DNA of 41,826 nucleotides from a virus: the IMG/VR virus record IMGVR_UViG_3300029743_000011; one strand, 5' to 3'. A program made the translations under genes and the position numbers. Positions 4,807-16,893 of the stretch are shown here, piece after piece. The notes under the pieces were generated by a model. That model was given only the letters and a program-made list of their open reading frames with translations, had not been told where the DNA came from and made no database searches. Numbering within the stretch: position 1 is the stretch's first letter; each line of letters starts with the position of its first letter.

Positions 4807-5910
4807 TCACTCTGGCGAGTCGTTTTGCAACTGATTTACGGCATCGACCATGCCTTTCATGTCCGGGTGTACGTACCGTTGGGTAGTCGTTATCTTCGTG
4901 TGGCGCATGATTTCCTTGATCGTAAACGGGTCGATGTTTTTCATCGCGAGGGCTGTAGCAGTTGTATGGCGGCATGAGTAAGGGGGCAGCTTTTGCACTC
5001 CGGCAAGCTCCAAACACTCATAATATCTCTTGTAAAAATTATCTTTGTTTATGCAGCAGATATTTCCGACGCGCGACTTGCTTTCTTCGCATAGTTCATG
5101 CAGCACCGGCGCAACGAAATCCGGGAAGACCATAGGCGTTTCCTTCCGCTTCTTTGTCTTTATGCCGCCTCGGACGATCTCATTTTTCTCAAAGTCAATC
5201 ATGTCCTTCTTGAGCTTCAGAAGCTCACCAGGCATCATACCGGTATAGATCATCGTAAGGATAAAACCGACAAAGTGGTCTTTTGCATACGCTTCCCATA
5301 GCTTTTTTACGTCGGCGTCGGTGAACGGCTCCGGCGTTTTTTCTTCAAGCTCCGGAAGCTTTATGTACTTTGCAAGATTCACGGTAGTCTGCTTTTCGGC
5401 AATCGCGAGATTGTAGCAATGGGAAAGGACTGTTTTCATGTCCTTCCGCGTGTAATAGGTGCTGGCATTGCGGTCAACAATGTCCTGTATCTGCGCGATG
5501 GTAAGCGCGTCGATCTCACGGTCGGCGATTTCTCTCATGCGATCGAAAGCCTTTTCCGCCGCTCCCTGACGGTCAGCCGATAAGGATAAATAATCCCCAC
5601 GCAGATACGTTTTGTAGTATTCCCTGAGTGTAGGGCTACGCCGCTCTTCCTTCGGCGGGTTGGCGGCATATTGGAGCGCGGCACGCTTTGACGTAAAGCC
5701 TCCCTTTGTCTTCATCTTTTGATGGAGCTTGTCATTTTCGTCAAGGTACGTCTTTTCAGTCCACCGGGCAGTCCACGTCTTCCCACGCTGGTAGGCGCTT
5801 CCTTGCCCGTTCCCGCGTGTCCGGTTTCGATGCGCTTCTTGTTTTTTGCCGCACCAGCAACAGTAAGGCGCGCCGTCAGGAATTTCTTTTTTACACTTTA
5901 TGCACTCCAT
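4807..5910 (-). CDS. int: Tyrosine integrase with N-terminal zinc ribbon
   Basis: ATG 5910 follows GGAGGG. N-terminal CIKCKK...CCWCG. C-terminal ...YSCRHTTAT...MRHTKITTTQRYVH carries the R/H-x-x-R/Y catalytic signature. Confidence 0.9.
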   Translation of the reverse strand: MECIKCKKEIPDGAPYCCWCGKKQEAHRNRTRGNGQGSAYQRGKTWTARWTEKTYLDENDKLHQKMKTKGGFTSKRAALQYAANPPKEERRSPTLREYYKTYLRGDYLSLSADRQGAAEKAFDRMREIADREIDALTIAQIQDIVDRNASTYYTRKDMKTVLSHCYNLAIAEKQTTVNLAKYIKLPELEEKTPEPFTDADVKKLWEAYAKDHFVGFILTMIYTGMMPGELLKLKKDMIDFEKNEIVRGGIKTKKRKETPMVFPDFVAPVLHELCEESKSRVGNICCINKDNFYKRYYECLELAGVQKLPPYSCRHTTATALAMKNIDPFTIKEIMRHTKITTTQRYVHPDMKGMVDAVNQLQNDSPE

Positions 5911-6466
5911 GTTTCCCTCCACGTTCTTTCCGGATTGCATAGAAAGTAATCGCCGAAGCCAGCGCTGAACCTACGATCAGGGCAATGCAAACCCATGCGG
6001 CCACGGACAAATCTCCATCGCGAATGAGACCTGTGCTTCGAATCTGCGCATCCGTCACAAGGCAGGCAATCAAAGAAAAGGAGAGCAGCATACAAAACAG
6101 GGCGAGGACGTAACACATTGTATGTGTAGACCTTATCTGTGCGCTCTGCACTGCCGCTGTTGCCTCCAGCTTGGCGTTTTCAATCTCGACATGATGGATC
6201 TGCTCGGTCAGCTCTTCCGGGCTTTCTGCGGGCTGAACAAGCCCGAACAGTTCATCCAGCGACAGCCCGAGAACGCGGCACAGCGCGGCAGAATTGTACA
6301 GTTTCGGGTCTTGCTGTGTTCCTGCGCAGAGCTTCGTCACAGCCGATCTGGAAACGCCGGATTCCTCGACAAGTCTGTCGATGGTGTAATGCTGATCTTC
6401 TTTCGCCCGCTTGATGTTCCCCTGATATGCAGAAATATATGGGGCGAGTTCCTGAATTGCTGACAT
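5891..6466 (-). CDS. XRE-family HTH protein with coiled coil and two C-terminal transmembrane helices (repressor-like)
   Basis: GGAGG RBS. HTH region IDRLVEESGVSRSAVTKLCAG. TM segments CYVLALFCMLLSFSLIACLV and AAWVCIALIVGSALASAITFYAI. The 3' end overlaps the int start by 20 nt. Confidence 0.8.
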   Translation of the reverse strand: MSAIQELAPYISAYQGNIKRAKEDQHYTIDRLVEESGVSRSAVTKLCAGTQQDPKLYNSAALCRVLGLSLDELFGLVQPAESPEELTEQIHHVEIENAKLEATAAVQSAQIRSTHTMCYVLALFCMLLSFSLIACLVTDAQIRSTGLIRDGDLSVAAWVCIALIVGSALASAITFYAIRKERGGKHGVHKV

Positions 6467-6956: not shown

Positions 6957-7541
6957 TTACTTTGGGTGGCAGCCTCCGCAAGGTGAATACCCAGAGTTCT
7001 GTGCATCTTCTGCACTATCAAACCAGATTTCATTCTCTGGGAGGATTTCCTTCGCGAAGCGGCAACCCGGATTATGGTATTTATCCGAGTCAACACTTCC
7101 GACGTATACACCTGATGATTTCGGTGACGTTGTTTCCGTAACTGGCTCAGAGACCTGGGAAGCAATAGCTTCCGAAACAGGCCGCTCGGTTGGTTCGGAT
7201 GCTTCGATCGGAGCGTCCGGCGCAGCGGGGGCGATATCGGATGCAGCGGAATTGATTGGGGATGTTTGCACGGACTCCGCCGGAACGGAAACCTCTGACT
7301 TCTCTTCGATTGTATCAGTGGAAGACTGCGATACGCTAGAAATATCAGTGTTTGGTGTCTCTGCTGTTTTCGGTGCAATGAACGCCGCAAATATCAAAAC
7401 GCAGAACGATATCAAAATACATTTCCAATATGTTTTTCTGTGAGGACTCAAACGCTTGATGAACAGTAAAATGATAAGCACCGATAGTGCGCATGACGAT
7501 ATCAAAGCCAATGTTACAGATATGAATTCCAAAAGCACCAC
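6957..7541 (-). CDS. Membrane-anchored protein with Ser/Thr/Pro/Glu-rich linker and C-terminal Ada-like ('sunset'-type) Cys motif domain
   Basis: Two N-terminal hydrophobic helices. C-terminus YVGSVDSDKYHNPGCRFAKEILPENEIWFDSAEDAQNSGYSPCGGCHP. Confidence 0.7.
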   Translation of the reverse strand: MVLLEFISVTLALISSCALSVLIILLFIKRLSPHRKTYWKCILISFCVLIFAAFIAPKTAETPNTDISSVSQSSTDTIEEKSEVSVPAESVQTSPINSAASDIAPAAPDAPIEASEPTERPVSEAIASQVSEPVTETTSPKSSGVYVGSVDSDKYHNPGCRFAKEILPENEIWFDSAEDAQNSGYSPCGGCHPK

Positions 7542-7598: not shown

Positions 7599-7820
7599 AT
7601 GTACGAAAATGAAACCGAAATTTTGACAGAAATGGAGAAAATTATGGATGAAATTAAAAAGCAGGAAGAGCAATCATGGGAATTATACATATTGTCAGAT
7701 GAAGACAGAAATTTCCTGTCGATAGTTCATAATAAGAACATTAGAAAAGCCCTTTTGGAGCGCCTCCGAGATTTAGGAGAGCTTCCCGCTTTTCTTGAGG
7801 TAGAGAATGGAACCAAGTAA
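7599..7820 (+). CDS. Hypothetical acidic protein (doubtful)
   Basis: AT-rich ORF with no clear RBS. Its last 80 nt overlap the 3' end of the convergent gene 7741..8151. Confidence 0.3.
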   Translation: MYENETEILTEMEKIMDEIKKQEEQSWELYILSDEDRNFLSIVHNKNIRKALLERLRDLGELPAFLEVENGTK

Positions 7821-8151
7821 GAAGGGCTTTGTCTTTAGGCGTTAGCGCTTCGCCATCGGCGGGGCGCTCTTTTTTTATGCCCTTTTCCCGTTCCCGCTCG
7901 ATCAGGCTGCGCACTAACTCGATATCTGCCTCTTCTACAAGAATCTCCTCCGGCGTGGTTTGCAGCAGAACGCACATACGGGCGGCTTCTTCGGGGGAAG
8001 GGAGGTTTCTGCCACGCTTGAGATCAGAAACCCACGAAGGGCGGTCTTCGAAACCCATAGCTAAGCAAAATACAACATTGCTCCGAAAGTGCTTGTCAAT
8101 CTGCACTTTTACAGAGTCGTATATGATTTTTACGGTCTTCTTTCTGGACAT
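7741..8151 (-). CDS. XRE-like HTH DNA-binding protein (CI-like candidate)
   Basis: AAGAGG RBS. SWVSDLKRGRNLPSPEEAARMCVLLQTTPEEIL. The start lies 13 nt downstream of the nuclease gene stop, suggesting an operon. Confidence 0.7.
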   Translation of the reverse strand: MSRKKTVKIIYDSVKVQIDKHFRSNVVFCLAMGFEDRPSWVSDLKRGRNLPSPEEAARMCVLLQTTPEEILVEEADIELVRSLIEREREKGIKKERPADGEALTPKDKALLTWFHSLPQEKREALLNLGGAPKGLF

Positions 8152-8164
8152 AGCAAACCTCTTA

Positions 8165-8917
8165 TTACTGATTATTAAGCATTTCGATTATTTTTTCTCT
8201 ATCCCACAGTAAAACGCGCGTTTTTTCGGCGAGAGCTTTTGCACCACTCGTAAAGTGCCGGTTTGTCATTACCACAGCAACTTGGCAGTTATACATTTCT
8301 TTTCCGGCAAAAACTTCTTGTACGGGCTTATTTCCTAAATCCGAAGAAAAACATTTGCACTGAATGGCATAGTGTATTTCTTCCTTTTGCGCGACTATAT
8401 CGACGCCCTGATCATTGCTGCCCGGAGTGACAGACACGTTGTAAAACCCATTGCTTCTAAGCAAATTCGCGCACCAGAATTCAAATGCATGGCCATCCAT
8501 TACGTCAATTTTATATAACTCATTTTCGATCTTGGACAATCCGCGCTGTTCTCTTCTCCAATCCTCTTCTTCTTGAAGAATTGATCGAACATCAATCTCT
8601 GCGTGAGGCTGTTCCCTTTGAACAGGTTGAGCCGCTACCGGCTTAACGGGAAGAATCGGTTCAACCACGTCTGCATCCTTATCAAATTTAAGCGACCTAC
8701 TCTTCCTCTTTTTTCGGCCCAGTTTGCAGGAAAAATAAAATGCTGCGGCTATTCCGACAAATGGATACCATGTAGGAGCAAGCAATGTGTTTGTTGTTTC
8801 ATCCACTGGGAACACGGCACAGCCGATTAAATGATAAGCAAGAAATACGCCGAAGAAAATGAGCACGCGCTTTGCAAATCCTAGAACGGGACGTATTGGT
8901 TTGTTCATTCTACCCAT
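8165..8917 (-). CDS. Membrane-anchored Mrr_cat-type (PD-(D/E)xK) restriction endonuclease-like protein
   Basis: Two N-terminal TM helices. C-terminal GHAFEFWCANLLRSNGF...GSNDQGVDIVAQ...YAIQCK...VVMTNRHFTSGAKALA. The DNA is AT-richer than its surroundings. Confidence 0.75.
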   Translation of the reverse strand: MGRMNKPIRPVLGFAKRVLIFFGVFLAYHLIGCAVFPVDETTNTLLAPTWYPFVGIAAAFYFSCKLGRKKRKSRSLKFDKDADVVEPILPVKPVAAQPVQREQPHAEIDVRSILQEEEDWRREQRGLSKIENELYKIDVMDGHAFEFWCANLLRSNGFYNVSVTPGSNDQGVDIVAQKEEIHYAIQCKCFSSDLGNKPVQEVFAGKEMYNCQVAVVMTNRHFTSGAKALAEKTRVLLWDREKIIEMLNNQ

Positions 8918-8948
8918 AAAGCATAAGCATTTCTTGTTCAGATTTGAA

Positions 8949-8993
8949 CCGGAATATTTCTGGCATTACCCTTGACAGCCAGAAATATTCTGG
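8949..8993. promoter_or_regulatory. Two operator-like sites CC(A/G)GAA-N3-TTCTGG, centres 30 bp apart
   Basis: ccggaatatttctgg (8949-8963) and ccagaaatattctgg (8979-8993) are inverted copies of each other (14/15). The second fills the spacer of the consensus promoter. Confidence 0.6.
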
Positions 8994-9000
8994 TTATAAT
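8972..9000 (+). promoter_or_regulatory. Consensus rightward promoter (early lytic, PR-like)
   Basis: TTGACA (8972-8977), 17 nt spacer, TATAAT (8995-9000). Confidence 0.65.
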
Positions 9001-9027
9001 ATACCCATGATAAATCAAAACAGGCAA
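8998..9027 (-). promoter_or_regulatory. Candidate leftward promoter (PRM-like), back-to-back with the rightward one
   Basis: The minus strand reads TTGCCT, 18 nt spacer, TATATT. Confidence 0.3.
9008..9017. promoter_or_regulatory. Operator-like palindrome TGATAAATCA
   Basis: Reverse complement of the site at 9132-9141. Both are followed by AAA. Confidence 0.4.
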
Positions 9028-9113
9028 AGCTAACGCCAACCCACAAGCATTTTTTCGGTTTGCGGGCTTATTACCGATATTTTGTTGGCTGACACTTACA
9101 TAATAAAGGCTTT

Positions 9114-9142
9114 TTGACGTTTTGTCAACGCTGATTTATCAA
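9114..9142 (+). promoter_or_regulatory. Second candidate rightward promoter
   Basis: TTGACG, 17 nt spacer, TATCAA. Lies 25 nt upstream of the cro-like start. Confidence 0.35.
9132..9141. promoter_or_regulatory. Operator-like palindrome TGATTTATCA
   Basis: Inverted copy of 9008-9017. Overlaps the -10 of the second rightward promoter. Confidence 0.4.
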
Positions 9143-9166
9143 AATTACCGAATAAGGAGGGTAGAC

Positions 9167-9391
9167 GTGGAGACTTTGAAAGAAATGCGTCTGCGGTGCG
9201 GCTATTCCCGCCCGCAGGTCGCGAACAAACTAAACGTCTCGGATACGGCAATCGCGCACTGGGAGGCGGAGGACTGGACACCTTCTACGAAGTATCACAA
9301 GCCGCTTGCGCGTATCTACGGTGTGCCGCTCGATGTTTTCCGGGCAACAATAGAGGAAACGAAGAAGCGGAAACAGGGAGCGGGCGTATGA
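9167..9391 (+). CDS. Cro-like XRE HTH protein
   Basis: GTG 9167 lies 6 nt after AAGGAGGG. LKEMRLRCGYSRPQVANKLNVSDTAIAHWE. Confidence 0.75.
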   Translation: METLKEMRLRCGYSRPQVANKLNVSDTAIAHWEAEDWTPSTKYHKPLARIYGVPLDVFRATIEETKKRKQGAGV

Positions 9392-9816
9392 AACGCAAAG
9401 AGGAAACGGCGATTATCCTTTCCGCGCTTGCAACCGCAGGTGTGCCGGAAAGCAATCAGGTAAAATCGGCAGTTGATTACGGGTTGAAACTGATCCGCAT
9501 AAGGAAATTTGAAGAACGGGCAGAACCCAAAGAAGGGTTGCCAATGTTGGAAAAATGGACAGGCGACCTGATCGGGAAGATGCACAACAGCAAGGTCACA
9601 TACGACGAAGCGCAAGGAGAAGGAGGGCTGACAATGTGCAAACAGGGAATAGTTTCAGCGAAAGTTGAGATTTTAGGAAGCTACGCAATCGTCGATGCGA
9701 CAGGAGAAGCAAAGGCTGTGGCTTTGTTTATCAAAGAACTTGGCTTGGCTGATAACGTTGGGGCAAAAACCTTGAGCCTTGTAAAAGAGGCTCAGACGGA
9801 AAAGGAGGAAGTCTGA
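9388..9816 (+). CDS. Hypothetical early protein
   Basis: ATGA overlap with the cro-like stop. 142 aa. The longer out-of-frame ORF from 9196 was rejected. Confidence 0.6.
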   Translation: MKRKEETAIILSALATAGVPESNQVKSAVDYGLKLIRIRKFEERAEPKEGLPMLEKWTGDLIGKMHNSKVTYDEAQGEGGLTMCKQGIVSAKVEILGSYAIVDATGEAKAVALFIKELGLADNVGAKTLSLVKEAQTEKEEV

Positions 9817-16020: not shown

Positions 16021-16893
16021 GTGAGCGATTTAGAGCAGACGGTGATTGCCCGCGTATTCCCGCGCAAAACTAACGCTTCGCCGACTGATGCGCTGGCGTT
16101 CTTCAGTGAGCCGACGATTGAGAACATCTCGGACTGCATCAAAGCAGGCGTGACGTCAGTACATATCTCCGTCACGTTTACATGGGATCTCGAAAAAGCC
16201 GAGGACTTATATTACGCATGGCAGATTCTCGGCGTACCGGTAGAAGTCGGCGGTCCGGCATTCGATGATCGCATGGGAGGCTTCACACCGGGGCTTTACC
16301 TGCGTGACGGTTTGATTTTTACCTCGCGGGGATGCACAAAGGACTGCTGGTTTTGTTCCGTACCGCGTTGCGCGCATGGCGTAATTCGGGAGCTTCCGAT
16401 CGTGGACGGCTGGAATATCCTTGACGACAACATTCTTGGAACGTCAGAAACGCATTTTCGGGCAGTTTGTGACATGCTTAAGAGGCAGAAACACAGGGCA
16501 ATTTTTACGGGAGGCTTAGAACCGGCACTATTGCAGCAATGGCAAGCGGACATTTTACATGAGGTAAAACCGGCGCGGCTCTACACGGCATATGACACTC
16601 GTGACGATCTGGAACCGCTGATCGAGATGGGCAAGAAGCTGCGGTCGGCAGGATTTCGCCCGGTAAGCCATACAATGTGCTGCTATGTGCTGTGCGGCTA
16701 CGGCGGAGACAGTTTTGAGGACGCTGAAAAGCGCCTGGCGCAGACCATGCGTGCTGGATTCGTGCCGTATGCCATGTTATTTCGCGGAGAGGATGGAAAG
16801 TACGATTCTGAGTGGCGGAGATTCCAGCGCGAATGGTGCCGCCCAATTATCACTGGGAAAAAGTTCAACGAATTTTGGAGGGAGACGACATGA
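16021..16893 (+). CDS. Radical SAM enzyme
   Basis: TSRGCTKDCWFCSV is a CxxxCxxC cluster motif. The preceding VEVGGPAF region resembles a reduced B12-binding-like N-domain. GTG start. Confidence 0.7.
   Translation: MSDLEQTVIARVFPRKTNASPTDALAFFSEPTIENISDCIKAGVTSVHISVTFTWDLEKAEDLYYAWQILGVPVEVGGPAFDDRMGGFTPGLYLRDGLIFTSRGCTKDCWFCSVPRCAHGVIRELPIVDGWNILDDNILGTSETHFRAVCDMLKRQKHRAIFTGGLEPALLQQWQADILHEVKPARLYTAYDTRDDLEPLIEMGKKLRSAGFRPVSHTMCCYVLCGYGGDSFEDAEKRLAQTMRAGFVPYAMLFRGEDGKYDSEWRRFQREWCRPIITGKKFNEFWRETT

Follow-up and report, generated by a model that had tools for sequence, protein, structure and literature searches.

A predicted membrane-tethered Mrr-type nuclease in an exchangeable cargo slot of a phage repressor operon

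We analysed a 41,826-nucleotide stretch of viral DNA, IMG/VR record IMGVR_UViG_3300029743_000011 (hereafter the window, in whose numbering all coordinates are given). Leftward of its lysogeny switch, the window encodes a predicted membrane-tethered nuclease of 250 residues and, directly behind it, a helix-turn-helix (HTH) protein of 136 residues. Comparison with related phage loci identifies the HTH protein as the phage's immunity repressor, not a dedicated partner of the nuclease, and the nuclease as one exchangeable cargo gene (a moron) in a fixed slot of the repressor operon. We lean, though only slightly, towards reading this cargo as a lysogen-expressed, membrane-sequestered DNase that would act against incoming DNA.

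Both open reading frames (ORFs) of an earlier preliminary description were recovered with the same boundaries and the same 13-nucleotide gap between them (Table 1). We take the nuclease gene to be more than a chance ORF because its homologs form 820 clusters and its 250 codons are intact in all eight natural variants of the same phage (L229–L236, from eight public contigs; loci are referred to by L numbers). Public gene calls shorten the protein to 233 residues (GTG at codon 18) or 124 residues (an internal start), and the true start may be M1, M4 or V18. We rejected the pseudogenisation at which these shorter calls hint: the frame is unbroken in every variant and only the choice of start differs. 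Because the 124-residue calls hide the anchor, it is under-reported in database entries for this family.

The C-terminal part of the protein matches the Mrr_cat domain (PF04471) over residues 138–247 with 96.8 bits (cut-off 21, E 1.1e-27). Conservation of the catalytic residues was a check named in the preliminary description: E146, D173 and Q186-x-K188 are invariant, as is D169, in an alignment of 21 homologs with 44–83% identity to the query (alignment A1). A D...QxK core is typical of Mrr and MspJI enzymes. In an AlphaFold2 (AF2) model, with a mean predicted confidence (pLDDT) of 84, the core has a restriction-endonuclease-like alpha-beta-beta-beta-alpha-beta fold, and the best solved matches found with Foldseek were MspJI (5.6e-05), AF1548 (9.8e-05) and AspBHI (8e-04). 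A profile search of the PDB returned only AF1548 (E 9e-4) and a weak match to lambda Gam; a single-protein sequence search of the PDB gave no match, and neither the nuclease nor the HTH protein had a hit in NCBIfam. The Gam profile match (E 0.024) falls on a conserved helix before the core (EEEDWRREQRGL...D.M.GH.FE.WC; residues 113–160, ~8438–8581). Lambda Gam is a host-nuclease inhibitor, and the match is probably due to chance.

N-terminal of this domain the model contains two helices, residues 9–35 and 51–65 (pLDDT 89–97), joined by a short beta-like loop. Net charges of +5 in the N-terminal tail, −2 in the loop and +5 after the second transmembrane (TM) helix obey the positive-inside rule; because of this distribution both ends are predicted to lie inside, with the nuclease domain in the cytoplasm. 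Within the outer loop, F36, P37, N43, A47, P48 and Y51 are invariant or nearly so among homologs. Residues 66–109 are probably a disordered linker, given their low model confidence, and between this linker and the core lie two helices with a conserved WRREQ motif. The two N-terminal TM helices, the basic and proline-rich linker and the Mrr_cat core described previously were thus all found again, together with every motif quoted for them.

The preliminary description had also taken the AT-rich DNA of the nuclease gene as a sign of acquisition, and a check of its GC content, overall and at third codon positions, agrees. Its GC content is 0.432, against 0.523 for the window, and its GC content at third codon positions (GC3), 0.402, is the lowest in the window, where ORFs of at least 200 residues have 0.603 ± 0.077; its composition, more deviant than that of any other gene in the window, falls within the lowest 1.3% of 753-nucleotide windows. 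The adjoining HTH gene resembles the backbone (GC 0.501, GC3 0.518), so the AT-rich island consists of the nuclease gene only. The nuclease gene looks horizontally acquired, and its atypical composition points to recent acquisition.

Table 1 Features of the switch and repressor operon, with the evidence for each
Feature	Coordinates	Strand	Basis
Predicted immunity repressor, 136 residues: variable N-terminal lambda-repressor-like HTH, conserved middle, mosaic C-terminal ~35 residues	7741..8151	-	Homologs, alignment A2, operator covariation
13-nucleotide spacer with AAGAGG ribosome-binding site of the repressor gene	8152..8164	-	Sequence; too short for a promoter or terminator
Cargo gene, predicted 250-residue membrane-tethered Mrr-type nuclease	8165..8917	-	ORF; Mrr_cat; 820 homolog clusters; intact in 8 variants
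PD-(D/E)xK (Mrr_cat) domain, codons 138–247; E146, D169/D173, Q186-x-K188	8177..8506	-	Pfam, invariant columns, Foldseek
Basic, then proline-rich, probably flexible linker, codons 66–109	8591..8722	-	pLDDT 49–66
Predicted two-helix membrane hairpin, codons 9–65, with conserved short outer loop (FPVDExN..AP.WY)	8723..8893	-	AF2, hydropathy, charges
Predicted operator O2, CCGGAATATTTCTGG, differing from O1 by one mismatch and lying immediately upstream of the -35 of the rightward promoter	8949..8963	.	Palindrome; L173 breakpoint 8954
Rightward (lytic) promoter-like site, TTGACA-17-TATAAT, 12/12	8972..9000	+	Consensus match; position kept in related loci
Predicted operator O1, CCAGAAATATTCTGG, 15-bp palindrome in the 17-nucleotide spacer of the rightward promoter	8979..8993	.	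Palindrome, covariation
Conserved leftward leader (GTAAGTGTCAGCCAACAAAATATCGG) and hairpin 9035–9067	9010..9099	-	Comparison of loci, folding
Leftward promoter-like site, TTGACA-17-TATTAT, 11/12	9100..9128	-	Hexamers conserved, spacer variable among related phages
Cro-like XRE HTH protein, 89 residues, first rightward gene	9122..9391	+	HTH_31 34.3 bits, HTH_3 30.6 bits

The 136-residue protein has 944 homologs of 131–161 residues, which combine a variable N-terminal HTH region with a near-invariant middle (NLPSPEEAARMCVLLQTTPEEIL...DIELVR) and a mosaic C-terminus of ~35 residues (alignment A2). Its earlier assignment as an XRE HTH protein is weak by Pfam (HTH_31, 22.6 bits, cut-off 27); some homologs carry precomputed HTH_3 or HTH_31 hits, and PDB profiles match HTH proteins (2csf, E 0.005; 3bs3, E 0.03). 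What supports the assignment is covariation with the operators. At the lytic-promoter spacer every one of the related phages has a palindromic 17-mer, whose sequence follows that of the putative recognition helix, giving at least eight types. The helix SWVSDLKRG goes with GCCAGA-N5-TCTGGC, SWFxEVLRG with ACTGCG...CGCAGT, RGWITEWKR with TACAAC...GTCGTA and NNRWTSDLRRG with TCCTACGTAATGTAGGA; at least four further pairs obey the same rule. Related loci whose Cro is near-identical to the window's but whose repressor has a different N-terminus have different palindromes. Because the recognition region covaries with palindromic operators at the lytic promoter, we identify the protein as the immunity repressor, predicted to bind two CCAGAAATATTC(T/C)GG operators at the rightward promoter, O1 and O2, that are separated by 30 bp.

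The repressor has no peptidase S24 domain of the LexA/CI autocleavage type by Pfam, and induction must therefore work another way. Its C-terminal ~35 residues (codons ~100–136, 7741–7850) occur in at least four unrelated versions that are shuffled among otherwise near-identical proteins and do not track the upstream cargo; they may form an oligomerisation or antirepressor-contact module. A module specific for the nuclease was considered and rejected, as a 75%-identical nuclease (L005) is paired with a different version. On the opposite strand, a 73-residue ORF (7599..7820, plus strand), which public gene callers also report, runs towards the repressor gene and shares 80 nucleotides with its 3′ end; the overlap coincides exactly with the mosaic module. 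A strong terminator-like hairpin (7844–7868; 11 pairs and a T-run) follows this ORF, antisense within the repressor coding sequence.

Upstream of the repressor, the gene content changes from phage to phage. An ORF lies at −32 to +17 nucleotides from the repressor gene in 68 of 72 related loci, and these ORFs belong to eight unrelated families. Four of the families are unannotated; the others are Mrr nucleases (some membrane-bound, some soluble), zinc-ribbon proteins, a YidD-like membrane protein and an HSDR_N-type PD-(D/E)xK protein. Among 54 partner-bearing ORFs in IMG/VR loci fetched through the repressor, nearly all had a close upstream gene and only about eight had an Mrr nuclease. Even in prophages whose integrase (E 1e-253) and HTH–TM protein (E 1e-99) are near-identical to those of the window, the slot holds an unrelated protein of 225 residues. 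It is because the repressor is preceded by unrelated families in related loci that we regard the nuclease as exchangeable cargo.

The boundaries of the slot can be read from sharp breakpoints of homology. Against L187 and L013, identity of 93–95% runs from the cro side to 8992/8993, at the edge of O1, and resumes at 7997–8007, near repressor codon 49. Homology to L173 ends at 8954, just past O2, and homology to L172 resumes exactly at the repressor start, 8152. Because these breakpoints are so sharp, we place the cargo slot at ~8152..8953, inside the immunity cassette, between O2 and the ribosome-binding site of the repressor; the same comparisons indicate that cargo can change with repressor specificity or independently of it. 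The preliminary description had seen in the Mrr nuclease and the HTH protein a two-gene module. That view has to be given up: the HTH protein is a constant phage repressor with at least eight unrelated families upstream, and the nuclease also occurs without it.

Homologs of the nuclease form hundreds of clusters at 90% identity, nearly all in gut Clostridia (Oscillospiraceae and others) and the phages of these bacteria; 231 were confirmed in IMG/VR and 302 in species-representative genomes. Throughout the family the nuclease domain is highly conserved, and the N-terminal portion varies in length (24–308 residues) and content. At least one TM segment is predicted N-terminal of the nuclease in 102 of the 120 best homologs, and about 54 of these 120 carry an FtsK-gamma winged-helix domain (PF09397) in the linker region. 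The anchors include the FPVDE hairpin, multi-TM forms and, in Roseburia phage Jekyll, a zinc ribbon with a TM2 domain. Jekyll is an isolated, inducible prophage, and its homolog lies in the lysogeny module beside the integrase. Because these anchors are non-homologous and sit on one conserved nuclease, they suggest that membrane tethering is itself the selected feature. A search with a profile of the TM hairpin only (A4) for other effectors on the same anchor returned only four truncated fragments of the nuclease family.

Among 160 loci retrieved with the nuclease, most have no repressor-type partner. Homologs of the same full-length architecture, with an FPVD(E/G) hairpin and 41–43% identity, are found as opposite-strand morons between genes of the tape-measure region, with no repressor; one such tail-module moron stands alone, and another (L225:5001-6274) is followed after five nucleotides by a HicB-like protein with an antitoxin fold. 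In L227:5001-7446, at a prophage end, a homolog lies near a cro-like gene and is followed by a protein with a SNIPE/T5orf172/MUG113 domain. The arrangements in L225 and L227 suggest accessory or defence gene clusters.

From the domains, catalytic residues, predicted topology, gene order and coupling, cargo variability, anomalous composition and distribution computed here, we infer a course of events that includes expression in lysogens, nuclease activity, a target and protection. A consensus scan found no promoter-like site on the minus strand within 8165–8917. Because the repressor gene, 13 nucleotides further on and with no detectable promoter between, would have to be transcribed through the nuclease gene, nuclease mRNA would accompany any production of repressor and hence be present in lysogens. 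The protein would insert in the cytoplasmic membrane by its predicted hairpin, with N- and C-termini inside; a flexible linker of ~45 residues would then hold the Mrr-type PD-(D/E)xK DNase, which looks active, in the cytoplasm. Such a tether would keep the nuclease away from the nucleoid and direct it at DNA that reaches the membrane, and a superinfecting phage genome is its most plausible target. The short conserved outer loop is a candidate contact with the entry machinery, and the repressor would take no part in the mechanism.

Two known systems offer precedents. SNIPE (PD-lambda-1) is constitutively membrane-bound; by contacting ManYZ and the tape measure protein (TMP), it cuts lambda DNA as this is being injected (Saxton et al., Nature 2026, PMC13190303). 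The same study found that SNIPE without its TM segment is toxic, that tethering prevents self-cleavage, and that its homologs combine a conserved nuclease with a variable membrane-targeting N-terminus. The nuclease described here shares with SNIPE an N-terminal anchor, a nuclease domain in the (here predicted) cytoplasm that is the most conserved part, and a variable N-terminus. It differs in its fold: SNIPE has a GIY-YIG (T5orf172) nuclease and a DUF4041 domain that binds DNA and TMP, whereas the protein here had Pfam hits only to PD-(D/E)xK families, to neither GIY-YIG nor DUF4041, and its two predicted TM helices place both termini inside; some homologs have FtsK-gamma in the equivalent position. 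We therefore regard it as a functional analogue, not a member of the SNIPE family. In described architecture, on which rather than on sequence the comparison was made, it resembles Epona, a single-gene anti-phage system of the Vibrio cholerae superintegron that combines Mrr_cat with a two-TM domain and is active in E. coli (Darracq et al., bioRxiv 10.1101/2024.07.02.601686). Like the nuclease here, Epona is encoded by one gene that a mobile or accessory element carries. Unlike the nuclease gene, Epona is an integron cassette from another host phylum, not part of a prophage repressor operon, and its TM part is annotated as a holin domain, while no holin family matches the protein in the window (E <= 0.1). 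For the earlier suggestion that a membrane-held nuclease could attack entering DNA, SNIPE thus provides an experimental precedent and Epona an architectural one; for the nuclease here, defence is a plausible role.

Other systems resemble the locus in part. The Mrr-like nuclease domain of Zorya ZorD (E 2e-21) and the PADLOC candidate PDC-S02 (E 6e-13) both match the nuclease, in alignments that cover only its C-terminal ~115–145 residues. In Zorya, too, a nuclease is coupled with a complex in the membrane; however, only positions 918–1062 of the 1071 in the ZorD profile align, there is no SNF2 helicase and no ZorABC, and the neighbours are phage lysogeny genes. The best PDC-S02 match covers positions 193–307 of a 334-position model, and the N-terminal parts of these models (324–390 positions) are unmatched. 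The rexAB genes lie downstream of lambda cI and act by membrane depolarisation. With such rexAB or sieB-type genes the cargo shares a place as an accessory gene in the repressor operon of lysogens, presumably excluding other phages, and the preliminary description was right to see here a position where exclusion or defence genes are expected; yet the cargo lies upstream of the repressor, is a predicted nuclease and has no homology to rexAB. Finally, the defence hotspots of P2 and P4 (Rousset et al. 2022, PMC9122126) also hold alternative, unrelated accessory genes, several of them nucleases, at a fixed position. The slot here differs from them in lying within the immunity cassette, between operators and repressor gene, and in belonging to phages of Oscillospiraceae.

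Four other explanations have to be weighed against that of a membrane-sequestered DNase directed at incoming DNA. In a toxin–antitoxin or abortive infection system, the membrane nuclease would be a toxin restrained by the downstream HTH protein, and infection would free it to destroy the cell's own DNA. The tight coupling across 13 nucleotides, a gene order as in higBA or mqsRA, the HicB-like protein behind the nuclease of L225 and the toxicity of SNIPE once it has lost its TM segment would all fit. We nevertheless rate this as quite improbable: the HTH protein pairs with at least eight unrelated upstream families, its recognition region tracks operators and not cargo, the nuclease of L005 is combined with a repressor of different C-terminal module, and most family members are without such a partner, which leaves no dedicated, co-inherited pairing. 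A catalytically dead, nuclease-like DNA-binding anchor, which might for example tether DNA to the membrane, is very improbable given that the full E...D...QxK set is invariant; a secondary match to NA-iREase1, an 'inactive restriction endonuclease' family (30.9 bits), and the FtsK-gamma DNA-binding domain of many homologs would suit it, but the Mrr_cat score is far above that for NA-iREase1.

Ordinary Type IV restriction, in which the Mrr-type domain cuts modified foreign DNA and the anchor is incidental to the choice of target, we also judge to be unlikely. Pfam found no Mrr_N, SRA or other modification-reading domain in the nuclease, whose N-terminus is instead the TM hairpin and disordered linker, and the recurrence of anchoring with non-homologous anchors argues that tethering itself is under selection; in favour of this explanation, the Type IV enzyme Mrr gave the domain family its name, and the closest solved folds include the modification-dependent enzymes MspJI and AspBHI. 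The slot genes might instead serve the phage's own control of lysogeny, for instance as sensors or antirepressors through which a signal from membrane or DNA reaches the repressor; alternatively, the nuclease might degrade host DNA in the lytic cycle. Here the position speaks for the alternative: operators and recognition domain flank the slot within the immunity cassette, and the slot gene is translationally close to the repressor start in all but four of the 72 related loci. A common regulatory role is hard to square, however, with unrelated families that have intact nuclease motifs (Mrr_cat, HSDR_N), with the presence of the same nuclease among tail genes, on the opposite strand and far from a repressor, or with a composition that points to recent acquisition, and we consider this explanation unlikely as well.

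Several observations weigh against a membrane-sequestered DNase with a role in defence. Most of the other slot families have no defence annotation, and each related phage keeps some gene in tight coupling ahead of its repressor, so the slot genes could serve lysogeny control instead. PADLOC, which the preliminary description had proposed to run, returned only the nuclease-domain matches to ZorD and PDC-S02 and no match to a system. Between anchor and nuclease domain there is no DNA-binding or adaptor domain, while SNIPE needs DUF4041; the second TM helix is only weakly hydrophobic by Kyte-Doolittle; and the promoters were assigned from consensus matches alone.

Membrane-sequestered nucleases represent a newly recognised way to discriminate self from incoming DNA by location alone. 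The mechanism has so far been worked out only for SNIPE, and for Epona there is a phenotype only; if the reading as a membrane-sequestered DNase is right, the family would bring location-based discrimination to Gram-positive bacteria of the gut and add a second nuclease fold to it. A bolder version, which we hold to be rather unlikely, sees in the family an equivalent of SNIPE that is carried by phages of Gram-positive hosts and uses another nuclease fold; its outer loop would recognise the DNA-entry machinery of competing siphoviruses, and the Mrr domain would cut their DNA as it crosses the membrane. In this large group of Oscillospiraceae phages, the position between operators and repressor would then be a hitherto unrecognised defence hotspot, driven from the lysogenic promoter through the conserved small-RNA-like leader, and the roughly seven other cargo families would be new anti-phage genes. 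The more original by-products of the analysis are the cargo slot, the repressor–operator pairs and a conserved leader RNA: a fixed slot upstream of an operator-matched repressor yields a list of candidate genes for lysogenic conversion or defence, and predicted repressor–operator pairs are gained for uncultured gut phages.

The leader belongs to the leftward side of the switch. The preliminary description had called the nuclease and HTH genes the first leftward transcript. They do form the repressor (lysogenic) operon, but the leftward consensus promoter is separated from the nuclease gene by a conserved promoter–leader–hairpin unit. The leader was found in 76 of 237 loci (including L001, L009, L172, L179 and L184), and when folded one by one, all 43 of its distinct variants formed a hairpin (mean −11.4 kcal/mol, mean z −2.25). 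The stem sequence differs between phages, and in most of them UGGUUUUUUGUUG (a U-tract) follows. Indels in the alignment kept RNAalifold from recovering the hairpin; folded as a single sequence, the leader of the window was not distinguishable from shuffles, and no Rfam match was found in 8700–9400. Leader and hairpin look like a candidate small RNA of ~70–85 nucleotides, or an attenuator, antisense to the leader of the rightward cro transcript. Because the U-tract of the window is degenerate, read-through from the leader into the nuclease–repressor operon is plausible. A second short palindrome pair, TGATAAATCA / TGATTTATCA, at 9008–9017 and 9132–9141, flanks the leftward promoter and leader, and could be a site for the Cro-like protein.

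The window as a whole appears to be a complete temperate genome of siphovirus type, with large terminase, portal, head, tape measure and tail proteins and a tyrosine integrase gene (4807..5940, minus strand); nearly all related contigs come from Oscillospiraceae and other gut Clostridia. Leftward from the divergent switch, the 250- and 136-residue ORFs are followed by a 194-residue TM protein, a 191-residue HTH–TM protein and the integrase. The 194-residue protein (6957–7541, minus strand) has an N-terminal TM segment, a long low-complexity region rich in proline, serine and alanine, and a small C-terminal zinc-binding domain (Pfam Ada_Zn_binding, E 3e-5; NCBIfam 'sunset' domain). It was found in only 10 related loci and, because of this restriction, is probably a second variable cargo between repressor and integrase. 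The 191-residue protein (5891–6466, minus strand) has an XRE HTH_3 domain and C-terminal TM helices, and the 3′ end of its gene overlaps the integrase start by 50 nucleotides. It is kept beside the integrase in about 70 related loci, whether the recombinase is of the tyrosine or serine type; control of integration and excision, or service as a second repressor, are candidate roles. In the early region, an unusual cargo protein of 290 residues (16021–16893, plus strand) matches the phage radical-SAM-domain family phrog_9298 (E 1e-15).

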